The notes below the pieces were generated by a model. That model saw only the letters and a list, made by a program, of their open reading frames with translations, did not search any database and was not told the DNA's origin. A stretch of DNA of 32,000 bases from the NCBI RefSeq assembly GCF_009727955.1, contig NZ_WOBR01000003.1, positions 86,069-118,068 of the forward strand, given 5' to 3'. The first letter of the stretch is position 1. Each line of letters starts with the position of its first letter. The stretch is from Aliivibrio fischeri (GTDB taxonomy: Bacteria > Pseudomonadota > Gammaproteobacteria > Enterobacterales > Vibrionaceae). Below, piece after piece: positions 5,707-21,598 of the stretch. The position numbers and the translations under genes were made by a program.

Positions 5707-6212
5707 GACTGACTCCTTAATGCTTTTTCTAATTGGTGTTCTTTACGACGACAAATTTTAGCGAGACGAGCATGAACAAACATCCCCGCCAAGGCTGCAA
5801 CCATTCCAGCCATAGTCGGTAATGTTGCTAATGAAATCCCTGATGCCATTAATTTAGGTTGGCTGCTTCCTTGATTTGCCATTACATCAAATACCGATAT
5901 CATTCCAGTAACCGTACCTAACAAACCTAACATAGGGCATATTGCCACTAACACCTTGATGAAATTCAAATATTGATTTAGTTGTAGATGAGCTTCACTG
6001 ATCCACCCATCTCTAATGGTTTTGGCATACCAAGACTCATGATCACTGCGTTGCTGCCATTGCTCAACCCATCGTTTTCGCTGTATTGGAAAACTAAACG
6101 ATATGAAAAATATTCGCTCGATAACCAACAACCAACACAAGGCAACTACAGCAGCCAACCACCATAAAATGGGGCCGCCTTGAGCCATAAAATGTGAAAG
6201 AAAAGCCGTCAT
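5703..6212 (-). CDS. exbB: ExbB/TolQ/MotA-family proton channel (169 aa, short ExbB2 type)
   Basis: Three TM segments and the family signature CPMLGLLGTVTGMISVF...GISLATLPTMAGMVAAL. Its start overlaps the ttpC stop by 1 nt (TAATG). Confidence 0.85.
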   Translation of the reverse strand: MTAFLSHFMAQGGPILWWLAAVVALCWLLVIERIFFISFSFPIQRKRWVEQWQQRSDHESWYAKTIRDGWISEAHLQLNQYLNFIKVLVAICPMLGLLGTVTGMISVFDVMANQGSSQPKLMASGISLATLPTMAGMVAALAGMFVHARLAKICRRKEHQLEKALRSQS

Positions 6213-7567
6213 TACGCTGCCATATCCATTGCGTTAGGTTGCACTACTTTTTCAGCTTGTTCAGCAACTAACCCTAGCCCTTGTTTTTCAAGAATAGTAC
6301 GAATACTTTCTGCTTGTGAGCTTAAAATATTATGCGTAAGTAATAGTGGCATTGCCGCAACTAAACCTAAAACCGTAGTAACAAGTGCCATCGAAATACC
6401 CCCCGCCATCACTTTTGGATCACCATTACCAAACTGCGTAATCACTTGGAATGTTTCGATCATGCCGGTAACCGTACCTAAAAGCCCTAACATTGGAGCC
6501 AAAGCAGCTAATAGTTTAAGCATAGACAACCCTTTTTCTAGCCCTTGCTGTTCATCAACAATGGTTTCTAATAAACGCAGTTCTAATGCTTCAACTGAAC
6601 GTTGTTTTTCTGCATCGTAAACGGCAAGTACACGGCCTAGTGGGTTTTGACCAAGCTCTTGTGGTTGCTTTAATTGCTTTCTAATTTGTTGGCGAATAAC
6701 AAACAATCTCACGCCATTAAATAATGAAATAATCAATCCAATCAGTAATAAACCAATAATGATTTTACCAACCACACCACCCGCTTGAAGACGCTCTTTC
6801 ATTGTTGGCGTATTAGCTAATTGCTCTAGCATGATGCCACGTGAAGGATCACTTGCCATCATGATGACGTGTTTGTTTGACATCTCAGATAAGATAGTTG
6901 TTGTAGGAATCAGTTTTGGCTGTTGAGCATAGTAAGTCGCTACTTGCTTTTTATTGTCCCATTGCAAAAAACCATCATCACCAACCAATGCCATATTACC
7001 TAAGCGATAAGCATTGATCGATTGGCGATGACCAGAGCCATTAATCATGGTTACCGTCGTTAATTCTAATTCAGAACTTGCATTAATTTGCTGAGCCATG
7101 GTTTGCCATAACCCCGTTAATTGCGTCATAGAAGGCAAAGACTCAGCTGCAACGATATCCGAAATTAACTGACGATGTTCTACATTCGTCGCTCCTGAAA
7201 CCGAGCTTTTTAACTCCGAATCCAAATCTTTTGCTGTCTGTCTTACCACACCAAACAATTCACCTAAGCTGCCTGTTTCTAAATGCAACTGCTGCTCCAA
7301 TGTTGCTAGTGTTTTTTCATTTTTGCTGAAAGTAGCACTTAATTGATCGCTTTCTTTTTGCAGCTTTTTACGCTCTGCAATCAATGCGTTTCTTTGGGCT
7401 TTTAAGCTTTGTTCTGTTTGTTTAAAACCAGACTCTCGTTGTGCATCCTGCTGTTTTTGTACATGACTTGCTTGTTTTGTCTCTTTCAACAACTCTGTGT
7501 TTGCAGTCGCTGTATTCATCGAAAGACCAAGCAGTGAAATAGCTAAAATCAGTGGCTTAATTGTCAT
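6212..7567 (-). CDS. ttpC: TtpC-like protein: ExbB/TolQ-type channel domain with a long N-terminal periplasmic coiled-coil extension (451 aa)
   Basis: Signal peptide, then a Gln/Lys-rich coiled coil (QKQQDAQRESGFKQTEQSLKAQRNALIAERKKLQKESDQL). The C-terminus has an ExbB-like core (APMLGLLGTVTGMIETF...GGISMALVTTVLGLVAAMPLL). This architecture and position are typical of Vibrio TonB2 systems. Confidence 0.8.
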   Translation of the reverse strand: MTIKPLILAISLLGLSMNTATANTELLKETKQASHVQKQQDAQRESGFKQTEQSLKAQRNALIAERKKLQKESDQLSATFSKNEKTLATLEQQLHLETGSLGELFGVVRQTAKDLDSELKSSVSGATNVEHRQLISDIVAAESLPSMTQLTGLWQTMAQQINASSELELTTVTMINGSGHRQSINAYRLGNMALVGDDGFLQWDNKKQVATYYAQQPKLIPTTTILSEMSNKHVIMMASDPSRGIMLEQLANTPTMKERLQAGGVVGKIIIGLLLIGLIISLFNGVRLFVIRQQIRKQLKQPQELGQNPLGRVLAVYDAEKQRSVEALELRLLETIVDEQQGLEKGLSMLKLLAALAPMLGLLGTVTGMIETFQVITQFGNGDPKVMAGGISMALVTTVLGLVAAMPLLLTHNILSSQAESIRTILEKQGLGLVAEQAEKVVQPNAMDMAA

Positions 7568-7568
7568 G

Positions 7569-8336
7569 TTATTTCACCTCTTTTAGTGATAAAGATACAG
7601 GTAGAGTCAATAAGCTTGGGGCAACTTGTTTATAAGCGACTGAATAGGCTTTCGCTAAATCATCATTAAACTCAGAATCCAGAGCCTCCCATTGATTGGT
7701 GTACGTATTCCAACTCCAATATTGAGAAGCATCAAGACGACGAGCGAGTAAAGATACGCGTCCTAAATGCAGCATATCTGCATCTATTTGTTCATTATTT
7801 TCAACAATGATCTGTGTTTGGTATGTACCTAGCTTTGTGCCGTAATCCATTTCGATCTGGTAGGCTTCGAGGAGTCGACGATATTTTTCAGCATCACTTA
7901 CGTCCGCTCTAGTCATCATATGTTCAAGCTTGGCAATGCGATGTAAACGCTCTTCCGTTTTAATTGGCTGATCTTGTTCAACTACTGTCGATAAACCAGA
8001 TAACATCTTATACATTAAAGGAACAACACCTTGTCTGGTCTCTTTAATGGTCTCAATTTGGTCATTTAAACTTACCATCTCTTGCTGCTGACTATTCACT
8101 AAACCTGTTAAATGATCACGATATACTGCCAAGTTTTTTACTTCTTCTTGGAGCTGCTCAATTTCGGCTTTATAAGCTAACGTCGCTTCTGCACTTTTAT
8201 CGATTTTCTTCTGACTTATCGCTGAAGAAGTATTTGATTTATTTTCAATTACTCGTGCTTGATCAAGCGCAGTTGCCTGAGCGGTTGTGATCACGGTTGC
8301 TAATGCAATACCGATACTGATTTTTAGAATATTCAT
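7569..8336 (-). CDS. ttpB: TtpB-like periplasmic coiled-coil protein (DUF3450-type), first gene of the TonB2 operon
   Basis: The track uses a TTG at 8345. The ATG at 8336 gives the signal peptide MNILKISIGIALATVITTAQA, followed by a coiled coil (EIEQLQEEVKNLAVYRDHLTGLVNSQQQEM). The stop is 1 nt from the ttpC start. Confidence 0.7.
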   Translation of the reverse strand: MNILKISIGIALATVITTAQATALDQARVIENKSNTSSAISQKKIDKSAEATLAYKAEIEQLQEEVKNLAVYRDHLTGLVNSQQQEMVSLNDQIETIKETRQGVVPLMYKMLSGLSTVVEQDQPIKTEERLHRIAKLEHMMTRADVSDAEKYRRLLEAYQIEMDYGTKLGTYQTQIIVENNEQIDADMLHLGRVSLLARRLDASQYWSWNTYTNQWEALDSEFNDDLAKAYSVAYKQVAPSLLTLPVSLSLKEVK

Positions 8337-8407
8337 ATTTATCAATTTCTTAACTGTTTATTTTTAAGAACGAGCTCTTAAAAATTTGTATTCAAATAAA
8401 CGCACTA

Positions 8408-8429
8408 AAGGGAGACCGAAGCCTCCCTT
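8408..8429 (-). terminator. Hairpin terminator after the TonB-dependent receptor gene
   Basis: AAGGGAG (8408-8414) pairs with CTCCCTT (8423-8429) around an 8-nt loop, with T-rich sequence on both sides. It lies 18 nt downstream of the receptor stop (8447). Confidence 0.55.
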
Positions 8430-8446
8430 ATTTTTATTACAATAAA

Positions 8447-10549
8447 TTAGTATTTAACTTGCAGTGTCGCCATGTAGTTTCGGCCTTCACCAATAACAAC
8501 ATTCGATGCCCCATCGGTTGCGTAACCATTCTTACCAGTTGAACCACCACCTGCTAAGTAGTCAGTATCAAACAAGTTTTCAACATTAAAACGAGCGACA
8601 AAGGTTAAATCTTGGTCATATTTGATGGTATGAGATAACCCTAAATCGAAACGTGCATAGCCATCTTTTTTAAAGGTATTCGCTGCATCACCGTAACGCT
8701 CACCAACATAAATAGCGCCTAAGTTTGCATCGGTACTATTAGTAAATGCATAGCGAGTCCATACACTTGCAGTATATTCAGGCACATCCGCAGGACGGTT
8801 ACCTTCATACTTTTCATCTTTCGCATATTCAGCATCTAGATATGTCGCTGAACCGCTCATTGATAACTGCTCAGTAATAAAGCCTTGCATCGCTAACTCG
8901 ACACCACGGTGAACACGTTCACCTGATTGTGTTTTCTCTTTCTTACCACCACCTAAATCAACATCAATCGTTGAGTTTTCTTGGGTAATATCAAATACAG
9001 CACCAGATACAAACAGCTGGTTATCCATTAATTCCCATTTAGTACCTAGCTCATACAGCTTGCCACGTAAAGGGTCCAATTTTTGACCGTCATTCACGTA
9101 TTCACTGCCTGATACTTCACCTTGCATTTCAAAGCTTTCAGAATACGTTGCATAGATAGAACCAATGTCCATCGGATGATAAATTACAGCAAACTTAGGT
9201 GATACCGCTTCTTCTGCTAAACCTTCCTCAACTTGGCGATCTAAACGAACACCAACTAATGCTTGCCATTGATCATTAAACGTAATCATATCCTGAGCAT
9301 AAAAACCCCATGTATCGTACTTAGATGTTGTATCTCTAGGGTCTTTATTTGGATTACGCTCTGGAGCGGGAGCTGGCTCGCCAACTTGGCCGACAGAACT
9401 ATTAAATGAATACTCTAAACGGTCATAACGATAACCTAACCAGTTACTACCAAATAGCATTTGATGGCTTACGCCTAACGCATCAAATTCACCGATTAAA
9501 TCAATGCTTGCTGTTTTAAATACCCAGTTATCTTTACGATCACTACCGCCTTGAACGTATTCACCCGTTGCTGGATTATAAGTTTCTTCTTTAGGGAAGC
9601 TCTCTACGTCATGACGATTAAAATCTTGATGATTAAAGCTTGCGTTAATGCGCCATACATCAGTTAAATTTGCAGTAACATCAACACCAATGTTTTCTAC
9701 ATCATTTTCGATTTTTGACCACTGAGCATCCCAAATGTATTTATCATTAACAACCGTTTTGCCATCTTTAATGTAAGCACCAGAATCCACGCTACCTTCA
9801 TCAATTGTACGGTCATAATGGAATGACACAGTGATATCATCATTGATGTCATAATCTAAGAATAAACCACCTACAAAACGCTCTGTAGAAGGCACCGTTC
9901 CATCACTGTATTGACGCCATGAGTTGTAAGTTTGCTTTGATACAATGGCACGACCACGTAATGTTTGGTCATCATTCAATGCACCACTTACATCCGCAGT
10001 TGTTCGAGAATCATTATTTGAGCCTAGATCTTGACTCACACTCACTTGAGTTTCATAGGTCGGTTTTTTAGCAACCATATTAACCAAGCCACCCGGAGCT
10101 GACTGGCCATATAACAGACCTGAAGGACCTTTTAGTATCTCAACACGCTCTAATAATTCAATTGGTTGACGATAATGAGACCAATGTTGTTTTCCATCAC
10201 GTAAGAAACCAGAGCTACTGCTTAGTGAAAAGCCGCGCAATGTAAATTGCTCACGGTTACGTGTAGTTGCACCAGCACCGATACTTGCATCATTCTTTAG
10301 AACTTCACCAAGCGTACTGGCACGTTGTTCATCAATAAGTTGCTCATCAATAACACTCACTTGTCCTGGAGTTTCTAATTGAGTTGCCTCCATTCGCATG
10401 GAGCTTGAATTTGTATCTGCCTTGTAACCATAGTCACGACCAGTAACAACCATGTGCTCATCAGTTGTTGATGCATCTGTTTCAGCGTAAGCAAAAGGCG
10501 TTGATAAAACGGCGCTAATAACAAGAGCTAACTGACTTTTAGAAAACAT
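8447..10549 (-). CDS. TonB-dependent outer-membrane (siderophore-type) receptor, 700 aa
   Basis: Signal peptide (LALVISAVLSTPFAYA), a TonB-box-like DEHMVVTG, plug motifs (VSVIDEQLI, RVEILKGPSGLLYGQSAPGGLVNMV), and a long beta-barrel ending in the aromatic residue ...ATLQVKY. A Fur-box-like site lies upstream. Confidence 0.9.
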   Translation of the reverse strand: MFSKSQLALVISAVLSTPFAYAETDASTTDEHMVVTGRDYGYKADTNSSSMRMEATQLETPGQVSVIDEQLIDEQRASTLGEVLKNDASIGAGATTRNREQFTLRGFSLSSSSGFLRDGKQHWSHYRQPIELLERVEILKGPSGLLYGQSAPGGLVNMVAKKPTYETQVSVSQDLGSNNDSRTTADVSGALNDDQTLRGRAIVSKQTYNSWRQYSDGTVPSTERFVGGLFLDYDINDDITVSFHYDRTIDEGSVDSGAYIKDGKTVVNDKYIWDAQWSKIENDVENIGVDVTANLTDVWRINASFNHQDFNRHDVESFPKEETYNPATGEYVQGGSDRKDNWVFKTASIDLIGEFDALGVSHQMLFGSNWLGYRYDRLEYSFNSSVGQVGEPAPAPERNPNKDPRDTTSKYDTWGFYAQDMITFNDQWQALVGVRLDRQVEEGLAEEAVSPKFAVIYHPMDIGSIYATYSESFEMQGEVSGSEYVNDGQKLDPLRGKLYELGTKWELMDNQLFVSGAVFDITQENSTIDVDLGGGKKEKTQSGERVHRGVELAMQGFITEQLSMSGSATYLDAEYAKDEKYEGNRPADVPEYTASVWTRYAFTNSTDANLGAIYVGERYGDAANTFKKDGYARFDLGLSHTIKYDQDLTFVARFNVENLFDTDYLAGGGSTGKNGYATDGASNVVIGEGRNYMATLQVKY

Positions 10550-10740: not shown

Positions 10741-10915
10741 ATTTTCATGAGTATGGCAACGAAATATAAAACAGCTTATTAATAGAACTCTCATTTTTGA
10801 GCATTAGATTACATTTTTTGAAATATTTTATTTTTTACTTATATACCGCTAACCCCAAAGTGGTAACATTGCGATTGACCACACATAGAATGTGGCTAAA
10901 TTAAGGATCATTATT

Positions 10916-12007
10916 ATGAACAAACGCTATATCGCTTTAATCGCTGCTATCGGTATTGCCATTGGTTGGTTAACCTTTGGTGGTACACAAGCAGTTCTTC
11001 ACGCCACTTCTAGTACTGAATTTTGTGTTTCATGCCACACGATGGAAAAACCACTGCATGAATATCAAGGCTCCGTTCATTTTAGTAACCAAAAAGGCAT
11101 TCGTGCTGAATGTGCAGACTGTCACATTCCTCAAGAACCAATTGATTACCTAATTACTAAAATCCGTGCCTCTAAAGACATCTATCATGAATTCGTTACG
11201 GGTAAAATTGATACGGATGAAAAATACGAAGAGCATCGTTTAGCTATGGCTGAAACGGTGTGGGAACAAATGCGTGAAAATGATTCAGCGACATGTCGTT
11301 CTTGTCATAGTTTTGATGCAATGGAAACCTATGACCAATCAGTAAGCGCACAGAAAATGCATGTTTATGGACAAGAAAACAACCAAACCTGTATTGACTG
11401 TCACAAAGGTGTTGCTCACTTTGCTCCTCAAGCTAAGTTAGATACGTCTGCATTTGATCATTTATTTGATATGGCGAAAAACACAAAGCTTGATGCTGAA
11501 AAGGTTTACCCTATTGAAAATATTAAGATGTCTGATCTTGCCATCATCAACCCAACGGTTGAACTTACAACAGTAAGCGCAAAAGATGAAACTCGTACAG
11601 TAACAGTTTCAGGCTTCCAAATGAAAGGAGCTGAATCAGTTATTTACATGGGTGAAGGCCAACGTTCAATCATCGCGACGCTAACAGAAAAAGGCATTAA
11701 AGCATTAACTCTAGGTGAAGCAACTACCGATGCTTACGGCAATGAATGGCGCAGCGCCGAGTTAACAGGCACAATCGATGCACCTGTTCTAGCTTCAAAC
11801 CAACCTTTATGGGATTACGCTGAAGAGCTTGATAATGTGTACTGTTCAACATGTCATGCCAAAATTCCAGCAAATCACTTCACAGTGAACTCTTGGGGTC
11901 CTGTGGCTAAAAGTATGGGTGCACGTACTGATATTTCAGCACTGAACCTTGAAATCCTAACTAAATTCTTCCAAAACCACGCTAAAGACGTGGCTAATCA
12001 TAAATAA
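10916..12007 (+). CDS. torC: Pentahaem c-type cytochrome TorC (NapC/NirT family, membrane-anchored)
   Basis: Five CXXCH motifs (CVSCH, CADCH, CRSCH, CIDCH, CSTCH) and an N-terminal anchor (YIALIAAIGIAIGWLTF). The layout is four haems in the N-terminal domain plus one in the C-terminal domain. The gene sits immediately upstream of torA. The preferred start is the ATG at 10916, which has AAGGA 9 nt upstream; the track used a GTG at 10892. Confidence 0.9.
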   Translation: MNKRYIALIAAIGIAIGWLTFGGTQAVLHATSSTEFCVSCHTMEKPLHEYQGSVHFSNQKGIRAECADCHIPQEPIDYLITKIRASKDIYHEFVTGKIDTDEKYEEHRLAMAETVWEQMRENDSATCRSCHSFDAMETYDQSVSAQKMHVYGQENNQTCIDCHKGVAHFAPQAKLDTSAFDHLFDMAKNTKLDAEKVYPIENIKMSDLAIINPTVELTTVSAKDETRTVTVSGFQMKGAESVIYMGEGQRSIIATLTEKGIKALTLGEATTDAYGNEWRSAELTGTIDAPVLASNQPLWDYAEELDNVYCSTCHAKIPANHFTVNSWGPVAKSMGARTDISALNLEILTKFFQNHAKDVANHK

Positions 12008-12019
12008 GAGAGAGTGACT

Positions 12020-14473
12020 ATGACTAACATTTCTCGTCGCGGCTTTTTAAAAGGCGCAGGTGCATCAGCAGGTGCACTAGCGATTACGTCTATCGCTCCT
12101 TTATCTGTTAATGCCGCTACTGCTGGTCGCACAGATTCATTGGTTTTAACTGCTGGTCGTATGGGCCCATTACTTTGTGAGGTAAAGGATGGCGAGCTGC
12201 TATCAACTAAAAGTGGTTTAGCTCAAACCGTACCAAATAGCTTACAACAGACGGGGCCATCACAAGTTTATACAAAAGCTCGTGTAAAATACCCAATGGT
12301 TCGAAAAGGTTACTTAGAAAACCCAAGCGACCCTCAAGGCGTTCGTGGTAATGATGAATTTGTACGTGTTTCATGGGATGACGCATACAAACTAATTCAC
12401 GAACAGCATATGCGTATTCGTAAAGAAAACGGGCCTGAATCTATTTTTGCCGGCTCTTACGGTTGGCGTTCAAGTGGTGTTTTACATAAAGCACAAACGC
12501 TACTGCAACGTTACATGAGTATGTCTGGTGGTTATGCTGGTCACTTAGGCGATTACTCAACAGGTGCAGCTCAAGTTATCATGCCGCACGTTGTTGGCTC
12601 TATCGAAGTGTATGAACAACAAACTACTTATCCTGTTATTTTAGAAAACAGTGAAGTGGTTGTGTTATGGGGTCTAAACCCATTAAACACACTAAAAATT
12701 GCATGGTCTTCAACAGACGGGCAAGGCCTTGAGTTTTTCCATCAACTGAAAAAATCAGGAAAAACCATCATCATTATTGACCCAATGCGTTCAGAAACCG
12801 CTGAATTCTTTGGTGATAATGCACAATGGATTGCTCCTAACCCGCAATCAGATGTGGCAATGATGATGGGTATTGCTCATCAATTAGTCAAAACACAACA
12901 GCACGATACTGAATTCCTTGCTAAATACACAGTAGGCTTTGAACAATTTGAAGCATACCTAATGGGTAAAGAAGATGGTATTGAGAAATCACCACAATGG
13001 GCAGAAGCGATTTGTGGCGTACCAGCAAAACAGATGGAGCTGCTGGCTAAGATCTTCAAAGAAAACCGCACTATGCTTATGGCTGGTTGGGGTATGCAAC
13101 GTCAACAACATGGTGAACAACGCCACTGGATGTTAACCGTTCTTGCTTCTATGCTTGGTCAAGTCGGCCTACCGGGCGGTGGTTTTGGTTACTCATACCA
13201 CTACTCTAATGGCGGTAATCCAACACGTGATGCTGGTGTATTACCAGCAATGTCAGCGTCATTAGGCGGTGGCTCATCGGCAGGCAACGACTGGGCAGTT
13301 CAAGGTTCTGTAACCGCTTTCCCTGTTGCTCGTATTGTTGAATGTTTAGAAAAACCAGGGACACAATATCAACACAATGGTCATACATTAACCTTCCCTG
13401 AGTTAAAAATGATCTGGTGGGCAGGTGGCGCTAACTTTACTCACCACCAAGATACCAACCGTCTGATCAAAGCATGGCAAAAACCTGAACTGATCGTTAT
13501 TTCTGAACCGTACTGGACAGCAGCAGCTAAACACGCGGATATCGTTCTTCCAATCACTACCTCATTCGAGCGTAATGATATGACGATGACTGGTGATTAC
13601 TCTAACCAACATCTTGTTCCAATGAAGCAAGTTGTCGAGCCACAACATGAAGCACGTAATGACTTAGATGTTTTCGCAGATATGGCTGAACATTTAAAAC
13701 CAGGTGGTCGTAATGTGTATATGGAAAACAAAACGGAGATGGAATGGCTTCGTGATTTCTATAAAGCAGCACAACAAGGTGGGCGTAATGCACGTATTCC
13801 TATGATGAACTTTACTAAGTTCTGGGAAGCGAACCAACTTATCGAAATGAAATGGAATGCGAAGAACGCTGAGTTTGTTCGTTTTGGTGACTTCCGTAAA
13901 GATCCAATCATGAACCCACTAGGCACACCAAGTGGTAAAATTGAGATCTTCTCAAAAACCATCGAAGGCTTTAAGTTAGATGATTGCCCTCCACACCCAG
14001 TATGGATGGAGCCAACGGAGTGGATGTTTAACTACACAGATGGCGAACTTCAATTAATGACGTCGCACTCTGCACATCGCTTACATAGTCAATTTAACTA
14101 TGCTGATCTTCGTAAAGAGTATGCAATCCAAGATCGTGAGCCTATTACGATTCACCCAGAAGATGCAAAAGCTCGTGGTATTAAAGATGGTGATTTAGTT
14201 CGCGCTTACAACCAACGTGGTCAAGTTTTGGTTGGTGCACATGTTTCTGATGGTATTAAAAAAGGCAGTGTATGTATCCACGAAGGTGCATGGCCTGATT
14301 TAGACCCGAAAACAGGTATGTGTAAAAACGGTGGTCCAAACGTATTAACAATGGATATTCCAACGTCTCGTTTAGGTAATGGCAACTGCGGTAACTCAGG
14401 TGTAGTGAAAATTGAAAAATTCACAGGTGTTGCACCAACACTTACAGCGTTTACTCCACCAATGAATGGGTAA
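12020..14473 (+). CDS. torA: Periplasmic molybdopterin TMAO reductase TorA (Tat-exported)
   Basis: Twin-arginine signal [17 protein letters not shown]. Blocks typical of the DMSO-reductase family, TorA/TorZ branch, include [49 protein letters not shown] and HSQFNY. It is paired with torC. The preferred start is the ATG at 12020; the track used a GTG at 12014. Confidence 0.9.
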
Positions 14474-14519: not shown

Positions 14520-14545
14520 AAAGCGCTCTATATTTAGAGCGCTTT
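14520..14545. terminator. Bidirectional terminator between torA and the motor-like operon
   Basis: Perfect 11-bp stem, AAAGCGCTCTA (14520-14530) pairing with TAGAGCGCTTT (14535-14545), and a 4-nt loop. An A-run lies upstream and T-rich sequence downstream. Confidence 0.75.
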
Positions 14546-14577: not shown

Positions 14578-15219
14578 TTAATTTCTTTTAATATAAATCA
14601 CAACACGTCGATTTAATTGACGCTGTTGTTCTATCGGTAACGCTTTGTCCGCTCGAGGTTGTGCATCCGCATACGCCACCGCTCTTAATTGTGATTTATC
14701 CACATTAAATTTGATCAATTGCTTAGTCACTTCTATAGCTCTTGCTCCAGAAAGCTCCCAGTTACTATCAAACTGTTTGGTATGAATAGGTAAATCATCA
14801 CTATGCCCTTCAACGATAATAGAGCGACCGTTCAAATCTACTTCTTTCATTGCTTCTGCGAATTCGGAAATAAGAGCTTTACCTTCAGGCTTTAAAGACG
14901 CAGAGCCTGAGTCGTACAAGTTTTCACTATCAAGATCAATTCGTATACCATCGGTGACAGCAGTCACTACCACAGAATCCAAATTCTTCTGCTCCACTAT
15001 CTCCTGAATATCGGCGGTTAACTCTTGCATAGGCAGATGAGCTGCAGTATCAACCACTTTTCCCCATCCATCTTTTAGCTCTTCTAACTTGCCTTCATTC
15101 ACTTGAGAGACGGCAACAATTAGAACAAAAAAAGCCAATAATAATGTGATAGCGTCACTGTATGTCATCATCCAATCATTGTCGTCTTTCAACTCAACTT
15201 TGGGTCTTGCTCTATTCAT
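14578..15219 (-). CDS. MotB/PomB-like stator subunit with an OmpA-type peptidoglycan-binding domain (213 aa)
   Basis: A single TM helix carries the conserved channel Asp (WMMTYSDAITLLLAFFVLIVA, D22; compare MotB YADFMTAMMAFFLV). The C-terminus has OmpA-like motifs (YDSGSASLKPEG, IIVEGHSDDLP, SNWELSGARA, NRRVVIYI). The start codon directly abuts the motA-like stop (TAAATG). Confidence 0.8.
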   Translation of the reverse strand: MNRARPKVELKDDNDWMMTYSDAITLLLAFFVLIVAVSQVNEGKLEELKDGWGKVVDTAAHLPMQELTADIQEIVEQKNLDSVVVTAVTDGIRIDLDSENLYDSGSASLKPEGKALISEFAEAMKEVDLNGRSIIVEGHSDDLPIHTKQFDSNWELSGARAIEVTKQLIKFNVDKSQLRAVAYADAQPRADKALPIEQQRQLNRRVVIYIKRN

Positions 15220-16002
15220 TTAAGACGCTAACCTTTTCTTAAACGGCAAATGTACATTCATTGAATCTTGTAAGTACAAATCAGGACGTTTTTCTGTCAT
15301 TAACACAAACGCATTAATTTGCATTTCACGATTATCAAAATTGGTATTTACTCGACGACTAATACGAATCGCTGCAGGTTTGAAAAACACCTGAGCCAAT
15401 AAAATCCCATAAAGTGTCGTTAATAAAGCAACAGCTAAACCATTACCTAGAGCAGCCATATCACCATTTAAATTATCAAGCATAATGATCAAACCAATCA
15501 ATGTACCTATCATTCCAAAGCCTGGTGCATAGGTACCCATTGAGTTTAAAACCTCGGCTTGAGTCATTTCTTGTTTATATTGGCTATGATTGCTTTCATC
15601 TAATAATTTTTTAAGCTCTTCACCTTTATAACCAGTACCGATAAGTTCGACACCTAAACGGATAAATGGATCATTTTTTTCATTATCATTCAATGAATTT
15701 TCTAAACCTGACATACCACTAGATCGAAAAATCTGATTCCACTCGACCGTTCTTTTTATTGATGCATGTTTAAACTTCGTCACGTTTTTCTCATCAAGCA
15801 AGTTAACAAGTAAACCTTTAAACGAAGACAAAATAAGTGGGTATGAATAACTGATTAACGCCGCAGTTAATGTTCCACCTAGTACAATAAGAAAACTCGA
15901 TAAACTCACAAATAACATGTATTTATCGGTACTCATTGTTACGGCACCAATTAACACACCAAACGCCATCAACAAGCCGGTAATAGTACTGAATGAGATC
16001 AT
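15220..16002 (-). CDS. MotA/PomA-like stator channel subunit (260 aa)
   Basis: The topology is four TM segments with a large cytoplasmic loop between TM2 and TM3. The C-terminal block GTYAPGFGMIGTLIGLIIMLDNL...GLAVALLTTLYGILLAQVFFKP closely parallels PomA/MotA (APAMGMIGTLVGLVAML...AVALLTTLYGAIL). The length is that of MotA, not ExbB. An ATGA overlap joins it to the upstream gene. Confidence 0.8.
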   Translation of the reverse strand: MISFSTITGLLMAFGVLIGAVTMSTDKYMLFVSLSSFLIVLGGTLTAALISYSYPLILSSFKGLLVNLLDEKNVTKFKHASIKRTVEWNQIFRSSGMSGLENSLNDNEKNDPFIRLGVELIGTGYKGEELKKLLDESNHSQYKQEMTQAEVLNSMGTYAPGFGMIGTLIGLIIMLDNLNGDMAALGNGLAVALLTTLYGILLAQVFFKPAAIRISRRVNTNFDNREMQINAFVLMTEKRPDLYLQDSMNVHLPFKKRLAS

Positions 16003-17735
16003 GCTACAGACTCCAATTCATTCATTGTAAATTGTTTATTTTCAATAGCTTGACGCATTAACATCACAACTTGTTGTTTTGCCGAGTTTTGCTCATCATA
16101 TGATGCATCTTTACAACGAGTCATTTCAGCTTTGATCATTTCAATCATACGTTCAGGGAACCCTGAAAGAATGACTGCGACTTGTTCATCGTCTAAATTA
16201 GTCAACGCTAATGCTAAAATTTCAGGATTCATACTGCGTAATATATTGCTTAAAATGACCGTTGACGTTCTAAGCACGTCATCAAAAATGTAGTACACCT
16301 TACGTAGATTTAAGTACGCTTCTGGTGAAGACACTTTTAGCTGATCTAACAAATCGTTTTGCTGACGTAAATTCATTCCATCAAGTAACGACATCAACAT
16401 TTGATTACCATCGGTTCTTACAGTTTCAAAATCAGGTACCGACTGAGCTTTAGCAGCAAGTGATGAGGCAATCTCACCAAATGTCGCCATTGGCATGGAA
16501 TCAAACTGAACTATCTCTATTGCTATTAATGCTTGCTCTTCAGCCGTAAACGTTGATAAGAACTTAGCTGAGCTTTCTGATGGTAATTGGCTTAAGACTA
16601 ATGCTTTAATGCGCAATGGCTCATCATCTAATACCCAACGAATTTGATTAATACTCAACTTATCTAAAAACGAAAATGGTCGACTGCGATGTTCAAATTG
16701 CTCAGAAGAAACCGCATCAACTAATAAATAATGTAAATCCGTTAGATCTCTCACCAAGCGGTCATAATCAGCAGGGTTCGTTTCTAAATACTTCAAATAC
16801 GCTGGAATATGTTCATTTAACGCAGGAAACATTGAAGTAAATAACGAACGTCCTAGTTCCTGATAACAAGAAGCGAACATAGGGATATTTTGTTCATTCA
16901 AACTTAAACGACGAAGTACCGCATCTACTTTTTGAGGTTCACTCAAACTGTACTTAACCAATTGTTGTCGACACGCTTTCAGTTCGCCTTTTTTCGTATC
17001 TAACAATTGCTCAGGCGTTGGAGGTAATGAACTCACTTCATTAACACCCACTTCTTTTGTAGGTACTTTACGATTACGTGCAAGTAAGTAACCAATAACT
17101 AATAGTAATAATAGAACCAACACCCACCAATATTGTGCGATAAATGATCCCGTTACTTCTGATACAGGAACCATATCCATCCGAATAATCTCAAGACGAT
17201 CCCCTCTCATTGGGTTGTATTCCAACTTCTCAAGTAACAGATTTCGAATAAGCAACTCTGTATCTTTATCCACACTATTATCTAATAATAATGTAGTTGA
17301 TAAAGAACGGATCATTTTCTCCGTTTTAGGTGCTTGTTCATTACCTAACACACCTTCTTGCTGCTCTACTTCCTCACTTGGCGTCGACACTTTTGCAGCA
17401 GTATTCTGATTAAAAGCAGACATACCCGCTAAGCCAGGAAGTTCTGGAGCATCATCAATAATAGCGGTTTTTACTTCTGGTTGTTGTTTAACAACTGTCG
17501 GTTTAGATGTTAAAGCATCAACCTCCTCACGAATAAACTCAGCTTGAATAGAAAGCACATGTATATTCTTACCCGCGATTCGTTCAATGTCGCTGTTAAG
17601 TCGTTGCTCTAACTCCGCAGTAAAAGACATTTGGTCCAACTGCAACGACGTTTGTGCGAATACAATTGAGGTAATAAATAAAAAGCTAATGCATACAAAA
17701 CGAATACACGATTTCATTCTTATTTTTCCAACCAT
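15999..17735 (-). CDS. Bitopic inner-membrane protein: FliF/YscJ-like periplasmic segment, one TM helix, then a full-length FliG-like cytoplasmic domain (578 aa)
   Basis: N-terminal signal or anchor (MKSCIRFVCISFLFITSIVFAQ). The periplasmic part, about aa 28-197, ends in IRSLSTTLLLDNSVDKDTELLIRNLLLEKLEYNPMRGDRLEIIRMDM, which resembles the FliF/YscJ segment preceding the last TM helix. The TM helix is YWWVLVLLLLLVIGYLLA. The roughly 359-aa cytoplasmic part has FliG-like blocks: WVLDDEPLRIKALVLSQLPSESSAKFLSTFTAEEQALIAIEI, KVYYIFDDVLRTSTVILSNILRSMNPEILALAL and FPERMIEMIKAEM. An alternative start is the ATG at 17717. Confidence 0.6.
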   Translation of the reverse strand: MVGKIRMKSCIRFVCISFLFITSIVFAQTSLQLDQMSFTAELEQRLNSDIERIAGKNIHVLSIQAEFIREEVDALTSKPTVVKQQPEVKTAIIDDAPELPGLAGMSAFNQNTAAKVSTPSEEVEQQEGVLGNEQAPKTEKMIRSLSTTLLLDNSVDKDTELLIRNLLLEKLEYNPMRGDRLEIIRMDMVPVSEVTGSFIAQYWWVLVLLLLLVIGYLLARNRKVPTKEVGVNEVSSLPPTPEQLLDTKKGELKACRQQLVKYSLSEPQKVDAVLRRLSLNEQNIPMFASCYQELGRSLFTSMFPALNEHIPAYLKYLETNPADYDRLVRDLTDLHYLLVDAVSSEQFEHRSRPFSFLDKLSINQIRWVLDDEPLRIKALVLSQLPSESSAKFLSTFTAEEQALIAIEIVQFDSMPMATFGEIASSLAAKAQSVPDFETVRTDGNQMLMSLLDGMNLRQQNDLLDQLKVSSPEAYLNLRKVYYIFDDVLRTSTVILSNILRSMNPEILALALTNLDDEQVAVILSGFPERMIEMIKAEMTRCKDASYDEQNSAKQQVVMLMRQAIENKQFTMNELESVA

Positions 17736-18262
17736 TTAATAATGTCAGAGACTTCTGTAAGTGATGGATCAAGTTCTAATGCTTTTTTCCATGACACTAT
17801 CGCCAATTCAACTTGATTCAACTTGTAGTGAACACTGCCTTTCATTGACAGAACTTTTGCAGGGTTTTCTGTTAGCACTTCGGCTTCATTTAATAAAGCA
17901 AGGGCTCCCACAAAATCACCATTAGCCGCTTTCTCTTTTGCTTCTACACGTAAAGCTAATGATTTAGGCTCATTAAATGCCGAAACTTGAGCTTCTTCTG
18001 AATCATTTAATTCAGGTAACAAAGCATCAATGTCTTCCTCAGGAATAAGATCAGTATCAATAGTCAAAATCAAATTTGGATCAGACAAGTCAATTTGAAA
18101 CGCCGAACGATATTGCTCTCCATTCAATCGGATAGATAATTGATTCTTTTCAAAAGGAATATTCTCTACTGTTTGCTGAGATGTAATATCATTAGCCAAT
18201 GCGATTGAAGTCATCATGCATTGAGTAGTAATGGCTGAAACAAATAAGATACGCTTTTTCAT
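17720..18262 (-). CDS. Small periplasmic protein with a C-terminal TPR/SEL1-like repeat region (180 aa)
   Basis: Signal peptide MKKRILFVSAITTQCMMTSIALA. The C-terminal repeats are AANGDFVGALALLNEAEVLTENPAKVLSMKGSVHYKLNQVELAIVSWKKALELDPS. It is packed tightly between the neighbouring genes. Confidence 0.7.
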   Translation of the reverse strand: MKKRILFVSAITTQCMMTSIALANDITSQQTVENIPFEKNQLSIRLNGEQYRSAFQIDLSDPNLILTIDTDLIPEEDIDALLPELNDSEEAQVSAFNEPKSLALRVEAKEKAANGDFVGALALLNEAEVLTENPAKVLSMKGSVHYKLNQVELAIVSWKKALELDPSLTEVSDIIKWLEK

Positions 18263-18271
18263 AACAGCCCC

Positions 18272-19324
18272 TTAGAAACGAAAACCAATAGTAAAATCAA
18301 CAGCTGCACCGCCAAACTTGCCAGTCACAACATCACCTTGGTGCTTACTCTTGTAAGAGTTCTTTTCAATATAAGCAACACCGATATCAAAAAAACCATT
18401 CTTCATATAGGCAAATTCAACACCTGAACGCATAGCGAAACTGTTCTTGCCTTCAACGAATTGAGAACCAGCACTGATATATACACTAGGAGCTGGCCAA
18501 GAAGGAGTTAAGGTGTATAAAACACGCCCTTCAATACCACCACCTTCAACATTGAATAAGTTATTTCTATCAGAATTTTGGAAGTAATTTGCAATAACAG
18601 CAAAATGCAAACGTTCACTAGGTAAATGACGAGTGTAATAACGAAGACTAAAATCAGTTACATTATTAAAAGCATCATGGCTTTCTCCATTAACTTTAGC
18701 ATCACCACTTAAGTCAATATAACTCATCGCAAATCCAAATTGATGTGGGTTTAATTCCTTCTTAATTTCTTCTTCCTTTTTAGTCATTAAATAACCATCA
18801 GCCCAAATCGTTTCGTTATTTTCGACCTGAACTAAAGAAAGGGTAATATTTTGAGAAGAATCACTTAGACCCATTCGCCACATTAAAAATGCATCAGATT
18901 GAATTTCTTTACCTAATAAACGCAACTCTTTATTACTTTCAAGTCCACGTTGATATTTAATGGATGTTTTTGTTAAATGAAGTCGAGTCTTATTACACTC
19001 AAGACAATCACGAACCAATAAACCTGATTCTTGCATCTTCGTGGTTAATAACGCATTGATATCATCAACTTGACTTTGAGTTACGTTATTATCAATCTTT
19101 CCTTGAAAGTAGATAGTTACAGAATTAATGTTTTTCTTCTCTGCAATATCTTTAATTGCAAACCAAGATTCATCACGTTCCAAAAAATCATAAATAGAAG
19201 AAGTTGATAATGAAAGTTCTGATGATGTCTTTATATTAGAAGACGCCACGGCCATATTACAAAAAATAACACCGCACAAAGTAATTAACAATTTTCTAAA
19301 CAAAATTTTACCTAAAATATACAC
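18272..19324 (-). CDS. Outer-membrane protein: N-terminal periplasmic alpha/beta domain plus C-terminal beta-barrel (350 aa)
   Basis: Signal peptide (LLITLCGVIFCNMAVASS). The C-terminal half has alternating beta-strand patterns and ends in a typical OMP terminus, ...AAVDFTIGFRF. The N-terminal domain has a TolB-N/CsgG/LpoB/FlgO-like pattern (NSVTIYFQGKIDNN...LLGKEIQSDAFLMWRMGL...ITLSLVQVENNETIWADGY). The track start is a GTG, so the start codon is uncertain. Confidence 0.65.
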   Translation of the reverse strand: MYILGKILFRKLLITLCGVIFCNMAVASSNIKTSSELSLSTSSIYDFLERDESWFAIKDIAEKKNINSVTIYFQGKIDNNVTQSQVDDINALLTTKMQESGLLVRDCLECNKTRLHLTKTSIKYQRGLESNKELRLLGKEIQSDAFLMWRMGLSDSSQNITLSLVQVENNETIWADGYLMTKKEEEIKKELNPHQFGFAMSYIDLSGDAKVNGESHDAFNNVTDFSLRYYTRHLPSERLHFAVIANYFQNSDRNNLFNVEGGGIEGRVLYTLTPSWPAPSVYISAGSQFVEGKNSFAMRSGVEFAYMKNGFFDIGVAYIEKNSYKSKHQGDVVTGKFGGAAVDFTIGFRF

Positions 19325-19474: not shown

Positions 19475-19516
19475 AAAAAAAGGCCAATTCTGATTTTACA
19501 AAATTGACCTTTTTTA
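19475..19516 (-). terminator. Rho-independent terminator after the CpxA-like kinase gene
   Basis: On the minus strand: GGTCAATT, a 12-nt loop, AATTGGCC (one mismatch), then a run of seven T residues. It separates the two-component operon from the motor-like operon downstream. Confidence 0.5.
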
Positions 19517-19538
19517 TTAATGCTAGAGTCTGTATTTT

Positions 19539-20927
19539 TTAAACAGGAAACAACAACGATACTCTTAAACCGCCTTGTTTACGGTTTTCTGCAACAACTT
19601 GGCCTTTCATTACGGACATCGATTCTTTGACAATGGCTAAACCAAGTCCATACCCACCAGATTGCTTATCTCTGGCGGACTCTAGACGTGTGAATGGTGA
19701 GAATATATTTAAAAGCTGATCTTCTGGTATGCCCGGTCCATTATCTTCAACAATAATTGCAACGTGATTTTTCTCATTGCTCCGATATTCTGTGATAACA
19801 ACTTGAATAAGCGCATTATCGCCAGCGTACTTAATCGCATTTGTGATTAAGTTTTTAACCACTCGAGTTACTAAGCGAGGTTCAGCATGAACAACTGGAG
19901 CTTCTTTAGAGCAGATAAAATCCAAACATTGTGTCGGTCCTAAATCCATGCGGCTTTGAATCACTTGTGCGGAGATACAACTTTCAAGTAATACAAGTTC
20001 TAGCTTGGTGTTATAGCGAGAATTCTCTAATCGACTAAATTCTAAGATTTCTCCAACTAAATCATTCATCTCATTAGATTCATTTTCCAAACGGTTAACT
20101 AAGTGAATATAATCAGGATCAACCTTCTTTTTTAATAAATGAAGCGCAAGATTATGCCGAGCTAATGGGGTTCTTAACTCATGCGAAACATCACGAATAA
20201 GTCGCTGTTGCTTTTCTGCTAGCGAGTGAATTTCATGCGTCATGTTATCAAAATCATGAGCTAATTCACTGAACTCTCGAACCGAATTTCCAATTTCGTC
20301 ACTCACCTTTACGTCAAAATCACCTTGAGCAAGCTTATGACTAACCTCTCTCAACTTATCTAAAGGTCGCTGTAAATATCGTGCAATAACCCAAGAGAAT
20401 AACCCTAATATCAATACAGAAATAACTAGCTTAATAATCCCAAAATAAAGAGGAAAATTATTAGCAGGGTGATATTGATACGGCATTTGAATCACAATAG
20501 TTAATCCGTTTTCTAATGGAATACCAATAATGGGTTGATTAACTTCATTATCCAATTGCGTATTTAAAGGGCGTAAAAATTTCAGTTTAAACTCAAAATG
20601 AGGATGCATATCGCGGTGTGTAATTGGGCGGTTATTTTGGTCCAAAACAAATAAATAGTACTCTTGTGCACTCGCCCAATCCGCTAACTCATCCATATCC
20701 CCTTCTTCGATCAAGATATTTGCCTGCTCGGCCAAATCCAACATCTTAGTCTGAATAGAGCTAGGAATACGGAGCATAGATTTCATCAACGCAATTTCGG
20801 CCAAGCTCTGCAAAGAGATAATTAAAAATAAACTCACAGCAAAAGCACTAAATAGACGAAATGCTAGGCCATTTTTATATTTGCAAATAAAAGAGGGACA
20901 CGACTCAAACCATCGAAGCAACGTCAT
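19539..20927 (-). CDS. cpxA: Sensor histidine kinase, CpxA-like (462 aa)
   Basis: Two TM segments flank a periplasmic domain, followed by a HAMP domain. The H-box QQRLIRDVSHELRTPLARHNLALHLLKK parallels CpxA QQRLLSDISHELRTPLTRLQL. ATPase motifs are NLITNAIKY, DNGPGI and GGYGLGLAIV. A GGCGGA Shine-Dalgarno sequence precedes the ATG. Confidence 0.7.
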   Translation of the reverse strand: MTLLRWFESCPSFICKYKNGLAFRLFSAFAVSLFLIISLQSLAEIALMKSMLRIPSSIQTKMLDLAEQANILIEEGDMDELADWASAQEYYLFVLDQNNRPITHRDMHPHFEFKLKFLRPLNTQLDNEVNQPIIGIPLENGLTIVIQMPYQYHPANNFPLYFGIIKLVISVLILGLFSWVIARYLQRPLDKLREVSHKLAQGDFDVKVSDEIGNSVREFSELAHDFDNMTHEIHSLAEKQQRLIRDVSHELRTPLARHNLALHLLKKKVDPDYIHLVNRLENESNEMNDLVGEILEFSRLENSRYNTKLELVLLESCISAQVIQSRMDLGPTQCLDFICSKEAPVVHAEPRLVTRVVKNLITNAIKYAGDNALIQVVITEYRSNEKNHVAIIVEDNGPGIPEDQLLNIFSPFTRLESARDKQSGGYGLGLAIVKESMSVMKGQVVAENRKQGGLRVSLLFPV

Positions 20928-20932
20928 TCCGC

Positions 20933-21598
20933 CTATCCATTAACCACTTTGATAAAGCTATAACCACGTCCGCGAACCGTTTTAATATGCTGTTTCGATA
21001 AGCCTGATTGCAATAGTTTGCGGCGAATATTGCTGATATGCATATCCAAATTACGATCAAATGGACATAACTCTTTTTTCAAAATATTGGTTTGTAAATC
21101 GGCTTTAGATACGACAACGTCCGTATTTTTAATTAAATATTGCAGTAACTCTGATTCCGTTTCAGTTAAAGGTAAACGTAAGAATTGTTCCGCTAAATCT
21201 TCTGTTGCACCTACATAGCTTTGACGCTGACGTTCAAGTCCTACACGACGTAAAATCGCAGTGATCCTTGCAAGCAACTCTGGCACATTAAAAGGTTTTG
21301 CAATGAAATGATCTGCACCCGCTTGTAATCCATCAAGCATAGACGCTTCATCGCCTAAAGCCGTAAGCATAAGGATAGGGGTAGCAAAACGCTGACATAT
21401 ACGGCGAGCCACTTGGTAACCATCTAGCTTTGGTAACATTACATCAAGCAAAACGAGATCTATGGAGTGCGTTTGAATAAATTCCAGAGCACTTTCGCCA
21501 CAATGTACGCAATCGACATCATAGCCTTCATCTTGTAATACTTCTTGCAACAAATTGCATAACTCAATGTCGTCATCAACAACTAAAATACGGGACAC
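20933..21598 (-). CDS. cpxR: OmpR-family response regulator, CpxR-like (221 aa)
   Basis: Receiver motifs ILVVDDD, LVLLDVMLPKLDG and AKPF. The winged-helix block PFDRNLDMHISNIRRKL...VRGRGYSF closely matches CpxR PFDRAIDMHISNLRRKL...LRGRGY. Apparent GTG start. Confidence 0.7.
   Translation of the reverse strand: MSRILVVDDDIELCNLLQEVLQDEGYDVDCVHCGESALEFIQTHSIDLVLLDVMLPKLDGYQVARRICQRFATPILMLTALGDEASMLDGLQAGADHFIAKPFNVPELLARITAILRRVGLERQRQSYVGATEDLAEQFLRLPLTETESELLQYLIKNTDVVVSKADLQTNILKKELCPFDRNLDMHISNIRRKLLQSGLSKQHIKTVRGRGYSFIKVVNG

Follow-up and report, generated by a model that had tools for sequence, protein, structure and literature searches.

A stretch of 32,000 nucleotides of Aliivibrio fischeri DNA (contig NZ_WOBR01000003.1, positions 86,069 to 118,068; hereafter the window) carries on its minus strand, at positions 15999 to 17735, a gene for a natural fusion of the flagellar rotor proteins FliF and FliG. 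The C-terminal 60% of FliF, namely the third ring-building motif (RBM3), the second transmembrane helix (TM2) and the equivalent of the FliG-binding tail, is joined in this protein end to end with a complete FliG. The N-terminal part of FliF, with the RBM1/RBM2 inner rings that house the export gate and the first transmembrane helix (TM1), is absent, and a signal peptide or anchor is found instead. The fusion gene is the third of five minus-strand genes, which also encode a secreted protein, a periplasmic tetratricopeptide repeat (TPR) protein and a stator pair, MotA2 and MotB2. This set of five genes is also found across phyla in distant relatives, in some of them differently ordered. An open reading frame of 578 amino acids at exactly these coordinates had been singled out in an initial annotation made from the DNA letters alone, and it proved to be real; its product has 100% identity to A. 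fischeri database entries, and the locus shows 95% identity to chromosome II of A. fischeri strain ES114.

Read from its amino terminus, the fusion consists of a signal peptide or anchor, one RBM3 with a shortened collar insert, the equivalents of TM2 and of the FliF tail, and the N, M and C domains of FliG (Table 1). Hydropathy analysis revealed an N-terminal hydrophobic segment (aa 9–27) followed by a signal-peptidase-like site (VFA↓Q), a periplasmic stretch of about 170 aa, a single transmembrane peak (2.19 at aa 199–217) and a cytoplasmic remainder of about 360 residues, which matches the topology originally read from the sequence (an N-terminal signal or anchor, a periplasmic part of ∼170 aa, one transmembrane helix and ∼359 aa in the cytoplasm). 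In the alignment with the profile of the protein family described below, the transmembrane peak is colinear with TM2 of Escherichia coli FliF. The true start of the protein is probably M7 (17717) rather than M1 (17735), because its homologs and the 572/573-aa RefSeq versions begin at M7. The longest open reading frame, from M1, overlaps the TPR gene by 16 nt, and a start at M7 leaves a gap of 2 nt.

Profile searching of 1.84 billion representatives was used to build the family of the fusion protein, which comprised 187 representatives at E ≤ 1e-30, most of them of 550–730 aa and matching over nearly their full length; a profile search with a 79-sequence alignment gave no further homologs. At least 130 clusters at 50% identity have the fusion architecture, the common layout being a hydrophobic N-terminus (found in most members), a periplasmic domain that bears LPG and RGD motifs, a single transmembrane helix and FliG. 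Of 131 sequences, at least 90% shared each of the residues L99, P100, G101, G178, D179, F354, F356, E372 and G443. According to genome records and the labels of metagenome-assembled genomes (MAGs), the latter being the depositors' own, members occur in Gammaproteobacteria/Pseudomonadota, several Bacteroidota, Fibrobacterota and Bdellovibrionota. Within the Vibrionaceae the distribution of the operon is patchy.

The periplasmic domain was assigned to RBM3 by family profiles and by a structure model. Pfam YscJ_FliF_C (PF08345) was matched by 37 of the 79 family members scanned (best E 7e-8), and no other periplasmic family recurred across them. The profile of the family N-terminus aligned with residues 233–472 of E. 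coli FliF at 40.4 bits; the match begins with the first RBM3 helix, passes the collar region and the strand-helix-strand 'LSVAVVVN...KRGDSLNVVNSPF' and takes in TM2. Directly before TM2 the block IRSLSTTLLLD...RGDRLEIIRMDM of the fusion pairs with 'VQRLSVAVVVN...KRGDSLNVVNSPF' of E. coli FliF. In the AlphaFold2 (AF2) model of aa 28–200, the core of which has a predicted local distance difference test score (pLDDT) above 90, the elements follow each other in the order helix, strand, disordered insert, strand, helix, strand. When this model was compared with the PDB by Foldseek, the top 18 matches were all FliF structures, 17 of them chains of the membrane-supramembrane (MS) ring, the S-ring or RBM3 (E 2e-4 to 2e-3); PrgK and EscJ appeared in the list only at E ≥ 0.1. 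The FliF-like character first noticed in the stretch before the transmembrane helix was thus borne out by Pfam, profile and structure searches, and the opposite outcome, a periplasmic part unrelated to the ring-building motifs of FliF/YscJ, was not what these searches gave: the relation is specifically to RBM3.

The disordered insert (aa 72–137) occupies the position of the FliF β-collar and is shorter than the latter. It contains the LPG motif, all three residues of which are among those conserved in at least 90% of the 131 sequences, and this motif aligns near 'YPGGVPGAL' of E. coli FliF. The RGD motif at the start of the last strand is likewise conserved (R 83%, G 96% and D 98% in a local alignment of 139 sequences). 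No match to RBM1/RBM2 (Pfam PF01514, YscJ_FliF) was obtained for the fusion or for any of the 79 scanned members, and in the AF2 models the periplasmic region is one RBM only. The earlier suggestion that the large FliF rings are pared down in this protein agrees with these data. Its description of the FliF part as a 'FliF-end' falls short in extent, as that part takes in RBM3, TM2 and a probable FliG-binding C-terminal tail.

That FliF and FliG are linked within one polypeptide, and more literally than had been proposed, was evident from a comparison of the whole-family profile with an in silico concatenate of E. coli FliF (231–552) and FliG. A single domain of 85 bits extended from FliF residue 231 across the join to FliG residue 65, with about six residues of the concatenate unmatched at the FliF/FliG join, and a second domain of 109 bits covered FliG 110–322. 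A profile of the segment between the transmembrane helix and FliG_M (aa 223–352) aligned in its first part with the C-terminal 70 residues of E. coli FliF and in its next part with FliG 5–65. The match of the tail to FliF 482–550 is weak when taken alone (8.9 bits) but colinear, and it lies within the single 85-bit domain; the fusion reads 'EPQKVDAVLRRLSLNEQN' where E. coli FliF has 'NDPRVVALVIRQWINNDHE'. The family profile matched E. coli FliG 5–65 at 21.5 bits, and Pfam FliG_N was found at the expected position in the relatives P0078, P0020, P0117 and P0033. The fusion's own FliG_N match (26 bits, aa 378–467) is uninformative because it overlaps the M domain.

For the remainder of the FliG half the assignment is direct. 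Pfam FliG_M (PF14841) was matched at 66.9 bits against a gathering score of 25 (aa 364–434), as it was by all 79 scanned members, and FliG_C (PF01706) at 63.6 bits against a gathering score of 23.3 (aa 465–569). The modelled FliG_C superposes on 1qc7, 8ucs_H (FliG bound to MotAB) and 4fq0_C at 1.1–1.7 Å, with target-normalised template modelling scores of 0.76–0.89. The full-length model matched two kinds of fold only in Foldseek, full-length FliG (3hjl, the best match, with 324 columns, and Salmonella C-ring chains; 311–333 columns) and FliF MS-ring chains. In a phmmer search of PDB sequences the Thermotoga maritima FliG-MC structure 1lkv was matched at E 9e-10 over aa 352–565; this alignment pairs 'kvyyifddvlrtstvilsnilrsmnpeilalal' with 'rmfvfedilklddrsiqlvlrevdtrdlalal' and 'fpermiemikaem' with 'mskraaallkdel'. 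The three FliG blocks initially aligned by eye hold under HMMER in this alignment, and they align to E. coli FliG as well. An MgtE-type domain was rejected, since MgtE_N scored 18.7 bits, below the Pfam cut-off, while FliG_M and FliG_C were above theirs; with the FliG_C fold also superposing, a generic helical repeat or MgtE-like region devoid of FliG_C, the outcome named beforehand as contrary to the fusion, was not found. The NCBIfam model TIGR00207 (fliG) scored 58.6 bits against an equivalog cut-off of 226.7, and from this score below the cut-off the fusion is taken to be a FliG homolog and not an orthologous flagellar FliG.

The residues involved in torque generation were compared individually with those of E. 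coli, where MotA R90 forms an electrostatic pair with FliG D289 and MotA E98 with FliG R281. R281 corresponds to R529 of the fusion, a position occupied by Arg or Lys in 116 of 131 members, and D289 corresponds to E537. MotA2 keeps the equivalents of R90 (R93) and E98 (E101) as well as those of P173 and P222 of E. coli MotA, and in MotB2 the channel aspartate of the transmembrane segment is retained (D22, equivalent to D32 of E. coli MotB). As R529/E537 and MotA2 R93/E101 are all kept, both partners of both E. coli torque pairs are present. The linker glycine of FliG is G443, kept in 126 of 131 members. Of the EHPQR motif that binds FliM only the glutamate is conserved (E372, 119 of 131 members); the histidine, proline, glutamine and R160 are replaced by P, L, R and E407, respectively. 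Judged from these residues the switch (FliM) interface is not present in the fusion, and neither fliM nor fliN was found in the five-gene operon.

The stator genes follow the fusion gene directly, the junctions between the five genes measuring 9, −16 (+2 if M7 is the start), −4 and 0 nt. MotA2 matched Pfam MotA_ExbB (E 2.6e-23, 82.6 bits), and its best NCBIfam models were those of flagellar MotC, PomA, MotP and MotA (E 1e-42 to 1e-20), TolQ and ExbB scoring at about 1e-3. MotB2 matched MotB_plug (51.2 bits) and OmpA (65.3 bits), with MotD, MotS and MotB as best models. Neither subunit reached an NCBIfam equivalog cut-off. On these scores MotA2B2 is a stator of the flagellar type and not of the TolQ/ExbB type. 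For all five genes the ratio of nonsynonymous to synonymous substitution rates (dN/dS) among Aliivibrio species was 0.005–0.19, which indicates purifying selection. The promoter candidate upstream of gene 1 is weak, because the number of sites in the consensus scan did not exceed that in shuffled sequence.

Table 1. Features of the fusion gene and its operon. Positions refer to the window and residues to the fusion protein numbered from M1.
Feature	Position	Strand	Residues or size	Remarks
Sigma-70-like promoter candidate, upstream of gene 1	19493–19520	−		Consensus scan, 9/12 matches
Gene 1, secreted protein with GFRF C-terminus	18272–19324	−	350 aa	Signal peptide, N-terminal hydrophobic segment
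Gene 2, periplasmic TPR protein	17720–18262	−	180 aa	Signal peptide; Pfam TPR_11, TPR_1 and TPR_2 above cut-off
Gene 3, FliF(RBM3-TM2-C tail)–FliG(N-M-C) fusion	15999–17735	−	578 aa	
Signal peptide or N-terminal anchor	17655–17717	−	aa 7–27	...SIVFA↓QTS; hydropathy
Periplasmic FliF RBM3-like ring-building domain	17166–17654	−	aa 28–190	Topology α-β-(insert)-β-α-β
Variable, predicted-disordered insert between β1 and β2	17325–17522	−	aa 72–137	FliF β-collar position; pLDDT < 50
Near-invariant LPG(L) motif within insert	17430–17441	−	aa 99–102	
RGD motif, start of last RBM strand	17199–17207	−	aa 177–179	Equivalent of FliF KRGDSLNVV
Single transmembrane helix, FliF TM2 equivalent	17079–17141	−	aa 199–219	Hydropathy and profile alignment
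FliF C-terminal FliG-binding tail equivalent	16887–17015	−	aa ∼241–283	Family profile
FliG N-terminal-domain equivalent	16701–16886	−	aa ∼284–345	
FliG middle domain	16434–16682	−	aa 352–434	Pfam FliG_M E 1.9e-18
FliG C-terminal domain	16029–16343	−	aa 465–569	Pfam FliG_C E 2.3e-17
Torque helix FPERMIEMIKAEM	16122–16160	−	aa 526–538	Carries R529 and E537
Gene 4, MotA2, stator A subunit	15220–16002	−	260 aa	Start overlaps fusion stop by 4 nt
Gene 5, MotB2, stator B subunit	14578–15219	−	213 aa	Plug, transmembrane Asp22, OmpA-type peptidoglycan-binding domain; 0-nt gap to motA2
Likely bidirectional hairpin terminator between motB2 and the convergent torA-like gene	14520–14545	.		Perfect 11-bp stem, T-run on both strands

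The two genes upstream of the fusion encode its putative envelope partners. The 350-aa product of gene 1 is probably an outer-membrane protein; its periplasmic N-terminal domain gives weak hints of FlgO, and its C-terminal half ends in ...GFRF. It matched no family significantly, and a crude scan for alternating hydrophobicity was unconvincing; among its homologs, two gave sub-threshold Pfam matches to FlgO (E 0.2 and 0.04) and that of Vibrio nigripulchritudo a weak match to OMP_b-brl (E 0.003). As FlgO is named after a flagellar protein, these sub-threshold matches suggest that the 350-aa partner may be flagellum-derived. Homologs of gene 1 were found at the fusion loci L002, L007, L009, L010, L011–L016 and L018. 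A C-x-E-C motif ('DCLEC') was noticed in the 350-aa protein and in its L007 (3360–4526) and L002 (3968–5074) homologs, and is absent from those of L009 and L010. The TPR protein encoded by gene 2 carries the conserved C-terminal motif GS..Y......A..W..AL..DP. A homolog of it was present at the fusion locus wherever the sequence suffices, in some relatives (L007, L008) with a lipoprotein-type signal.

All five genes, in the order of the A. fischeri window, were found in Aliivibrio logei, Aliivibrio finisterrensis and A. fischeri ES114 (L011–L013), as well as in the Shewanellaceae UBA2521 MAG, V. nigripulchritudo and Moritella sp. JT01 (L014, L015 and L016, respectively); the related-locus search, made with a narrower alignment, yielded six close genomes. 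The same order was seen in a metagenomic relative of 30% identity (L007), where the contig end cuts MotB. In relatives of about 20% identity (L009 and L010) the genes run outer-membrane protein, TPR, MotA, MotB and fusion, and in a Fibrobacterota MAG (L018) fusion, outer-membrane protein, TPR, MotA and MotB, each confirmed by profile. At three further loci (L002, L008 and L019) the TPR protein lies beside the fusion, with no MotAB within the available sequence. As to the question raised by the initial annotation, whether homologs always adjoin MotAB-like genes, such genes accompany the fusion at L007, L009–L016 and L018, but not, as far as the available sequence reaches, at L002, L008 and L019. 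No genes for export gate, rod, hook, filament or switch were found in the operon or among its neighbours, either in the window or at the related loci L007–L010 and L018.

Some of these loci have further genes beside the module. The neighbours of the fusion in L002 (5440–7012) and L019 (3174–3812) are small proteins with aromatic ends (…GLQLGF, …AQAQFLF and …GFYFVFQ) and the look of outer-membrane barrels; they gave no match to the profile of the 350-aa family. After the module, the Bacteroidota-like loci L009 (8678–15040) and L010 (13163–19704) encode a regulator of the MerR type, a hybrid response-regulator/kinase and a protein of about 1865 aa that is rich in PAS domains, and L010 has a nearby gene with a faint match to a type IX secretion system sorting domain (Por_Secre_tail).

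The stator genes of this operon have been studied before in strain ES114, under the names motA2 (VF_A0186) and motB2 (VF_A0187); by consecutive numbering, the fusion gene would be VF_A0185 and the five genes together VF_A0183–VF_A0187. Insertion mutants of ES114 (as V. fischeri) in motA2 and motB2 show normal motility in soft agar, motA2B2 is not activated by FlrA, and the canonical fliF and fliG lie elsewhere in the genome (VF_1852 and VF_1851) (Brennan et al., 2013; PMC3948606). The pair was described in 2013 as unique among the Vibrio species then completely sequenced and as having no motility role (PMC3948606). According to published data, the transcripts of motA2 and motB2 decrease about two-fold upon over-expression of RscS, together with those of some flagellar genes. 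Supplementary tables contained VF_A0186 and VF_A0187 only out of the genes of the operon. In the full-text literature searched, subscription-only papers being outside its reach, neither the family nor the operon was described, and the fusions of FliF and FliG found were those of Chlamydia and engineered ones only.

Taken as a whole, we are inclined to interpret the module as a self-contained FliF-FliG ring that is turned by its own stator, coupled to the cell envelope and not used for swimming, a reading that we regard as probable, if by no means assured, and in which the rotation and the output are what we infer. The RBM3 domains would oligomerise, as in FliF, to an annulus resembling the S-ring at the periplasmic side of the inner membrane, and because each subunit carries one covalent FliG we propose that a hard-wired 1:1 FliG ring would lie under the membrane. 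MotA2B2 units would be held to the peptidoglycan by the OmpA domain of MotB2 and would conduct ions through the Asp22 channel, pushing the FliG_C torque helix (R529 and E537 facing E101 and R93 of MotA2) so that the ring turns. As the FliM motif is degenerate and no FliM, FliN or CheY partners are encoded, the device is probably unidirectional and not controlled by chemotaxis; likewise, as RBM1/2 and an export gate are lacking, we propose that nothing is secreted or polymerised. The output would probably be periplasmic, from the loop at the collar position with its LPG motif to the TPR protein and on to the outer-membrane protein. On this view a rotor and stator of flagellar type would serve in the envelope for something other than swimming, whether through re-use or through retention. 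The fuller proposal of a free-standing, flagellum-independent rotary motor with a ring of about 30 subunits, its own MotAB and a TPR adaptor to an outer-membrane protein, present in several phyla, is advanced more tentatively, as something that may well turn out otherwise.

Several observations weigh against such a ring motor. The N-terminus of the A. fischeri fusion itself gave no Pfam match to FliF (E ≤ 1) and none in NCBIfam, and because it lies below Pfam significance its assignment to FliF is based on the profile of the family and on the structure model. The AF2 models are monomers obtained from a 9-sequence alignment, in which the insert at the collar position is unmodelled, and the template modelling scores of the RBM3 match in Foldseek were modest (0.37–0.50). 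An hhalign comparison of the shallow 9-sequence N-terminal alignment with E. coli FliF was weak (E 0.003, probability 9.5%, 37 columns, in the RGD region only). In the FliG half, the equivalents of K264, D288 and R297 are not conserved (T512, A536 and S545), and in L009 and L010, the relatives of ∼20% identity, no alignment is obtained for the loop of MotA that surrounds R90/E98. As L002, L008 and L019 show no MotAB beside the fusion within the available sequence, the stator may be separable from a TPR-fusion core pair. The roles given to the TPR and outer-membrane proteins are guesses.

The module could instead be an energy transducer without a rotating ring, in which the fusion, singly or in small arcs, would dock MotA2B2 and pass a pulling or conformational force to the TPR and outer-membrane proteins, much as TonB-ExbBD or TolA-TolQR do. 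We consider this unlikely, albeit worth keeping in mind. In its favour, the layout of an inner-membrane energiser, a periplasmic adaptor and an outer-membrane protein is that of such a transducer, the β-collar is shortened, RBM1/2, which help to organise the MS ring, are missing, and TPR and fusion genes occur at some loci without adjoining MotAB. However, the domain that has been kept is exactly the one forming the 33/34-mer S-ring in FliF (according to PDB titles), the three FliG domains are retained together with the charges that face the stator, and the stator belongs with the flagellar torque generators and not with ExbB/TolQ.

Less probable still is an accessory role in the ordinary polar flagellum, with the operon supplying an alternative rotor/stator set, a stator 'sink' or a regulator that would act under other conditions. 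All parts are indeed paralogs of flagellar ones, and the decrease of the motA2 and motB2 transcripts with those of some flagellar genes on RscS over-expression would fit. Against this, soft-agar motility is normal in the motA2 and motB2 mutants, and neither gene belongs to the FlrA regulon (PMC3948606); the fusion cannot house the export gate, since RBM1/2 are missing from it, and it is also without the FliM-binding motif; and in distant lineages, too, the module forms its own operon, to which no other flagellar genes are adjacent.

We see very little reason to regard the operon as the decaying relic of a duplicated flagellar locus without present function. It has no known phenotype and its distribution in the Vibrionaceae is patchy, but the reading frames are intact, dN/dS is low in every gene, at least 130 diverged clusters share the same architecture and motifs, and the five-gene set has been kept across phyla. 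A Zorya-like anti-phage system on a MotAB-type motor, the least credible of all, was rejected on the PADLOC result and the missing ZorA tail: MotB2 matched ZorB models (E 1e-19) and MotA2, weakly, ZorA (E 0.002), but these matches are generic MotAB homology, MotA2 with its 260 aa is without the long ZorA tail (model lengths 461–590), no ZorC/D/E-like protein is encoded, and the fusion, TPR and outer-membrane proteins match nothing in PADLOC.

Compared with the canonical rotor of FliF and FliG driven by MotAB or PomAB, the A. fischeri module has in common the RBM3 fold, in which an insert occupies the collar position, and the strand with RGD that precedes TM2, a putative FliF tail followed by FliG N, M and C in the same order, the equivalents of Arg281 and Asp289, and a flagellar-type MotA/MotB with equivalents of R90, E98 and D32, a plug and an OmpA domain. 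It differs in that one polypeptide takes the place of two, TM1, RBM1 and RBM2 are missing, the collar insert is shorter and the EHPQR motif has been lost. The operon is without fliM/fliN, export-gate, rod, hook and filament genes; its partners are TPR and outer-membrane-type proteins instead, and motA2B2 is neither needed for swimming nor regulated by FlrA.

The closest natural precedent is the FliF-FliG fusion of the Chlamydiaceae, which stands outside a complete flagellar gene set (Bergeron, 2016; PMC4768692). That protein of about 330 aa has an RBM2-like region plus one further RBM and a cytoplasmic region resembling FliG-M only, and is described without a MotAB partner (PMC4768692). In contrast, the present family has RBM3 rather than RBM2, three FliG domains including the torque-generating FliG_C, and a dedicated stator. 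FliF-FliG fusions that were engineered or arose spontaneously in Salmonella and Vibrio alginolyticus are reported to form MS or S rings (e.g. PMC11481574; PDB 8z4d/8z4g), the Salmonella cases being noted also in PMC4768692, and to that extent a covalent fusion is compatible with ring assembly. Those are laboratory constructs with full-length FliF in a complete flagellum, whereas the A. fischeri fusion is natural, N-terminally truncated and encoded in its own operon.

Among other ion-driven systems of the envelope, namely ExbBD-TonB, TolQR-TolA-Pal, GldLM, AglRQS and ZorAB, we know of none that has a FliG or FliF partner. What they share with the module is an ion-driven stator-type unit, a non-flagellar envelope task and periplasmic or outer-membrane partners (general knowledge and the overview in PMC12505986); MotA2B2 differs from them in scoring with flagellar stators and not with TolQ/ExbB or ZorA. 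With SctJ/PrgK/EscJ and SpoIIIAG the fusion has the α-β-β-α-β fold of an RBM in common, but the structural match to PrgK and EscJ (E ≥ 0.1) is far from the ∼1e-4 obtained for FliF RBM3, and the Pfam match is to the FliF-specific YscJ_FliF_C. The parts are those of the flagellar rotor and stator, their minimal combination and its partners being new.

The rest of the window contains several recognisable neighbours. Directly upstream of the operon, on the minus strand (19539–21598), lie a histidine kinase (HK_sensor, HAMP, HisKA and HATPase domains) and an OmpR-type response regulator. This pair was considered as part of the module and rejected, since it adjoins the operon only in the three Aliivibrio species, and neither in Moritella nor in Shewanellaceae; the pair may regulate the operon in that lineage alone. 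Convergent with the end of motB2, on the plus strand (10892–14473), lie the genes for a multihaem cytochrome of the NapC/NirT type (371 aa) and, after it, for a molybdopterin oxidoreductase of 819 aa that carries a twin-arginine signal; the pair looks TorC/TorA-like. A TonB2-type uptake cluster (3504–10549, minus strand) comprises a TonB-dependent receptor (8447–10549), a 451-aa MotA/ExbB-family protein (6212–7567), reading frames of the size of ExbB, ExbD and TonB (4682–6212) and a 393-aa TPR protein (3504–4685); it is a second energiser of the MotA/ExbB family, unrelated to the fusion operon. Two neighbouring minus-strand reading frames, both of 541 aa, occupy 27308–28933 and 29396–31021; the first encodes a methyl-accepting chemotaxis protein with a four-helix-bundle (4HB) sensor and the second may be its tandem paralog.

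If the module is indeed a motor, motA2B2, an old loose end, would gain a dedicated rotor from the adjacent gene. The family, apparently undescribed and spread over several phyla, would join the ring module with FliG, the two rotor parts that alone are needed for torque, with the rest (export gate, rod, hook, filament and switch) discarded. It would represent a rotary machine of a new class in bacteria, being either a still extant relative of a rotor-stator core that preceded the filament or a radical reduction of the flagellum. A hard-wired 1:1 FliF:FliG ring without FliM and FliN would be a simpler object for structural work on stator-rotor coupling. A. fischeri is genetically tractable, insertion mutants in motA2 and motB2 are published and the species is a model of host colonisation; in it the operon would offer a natural minimal system for the long-standing question, relevant to the origin of the flagellar motor, of whether a rotor and stator can be of use without type III export and without a filament.

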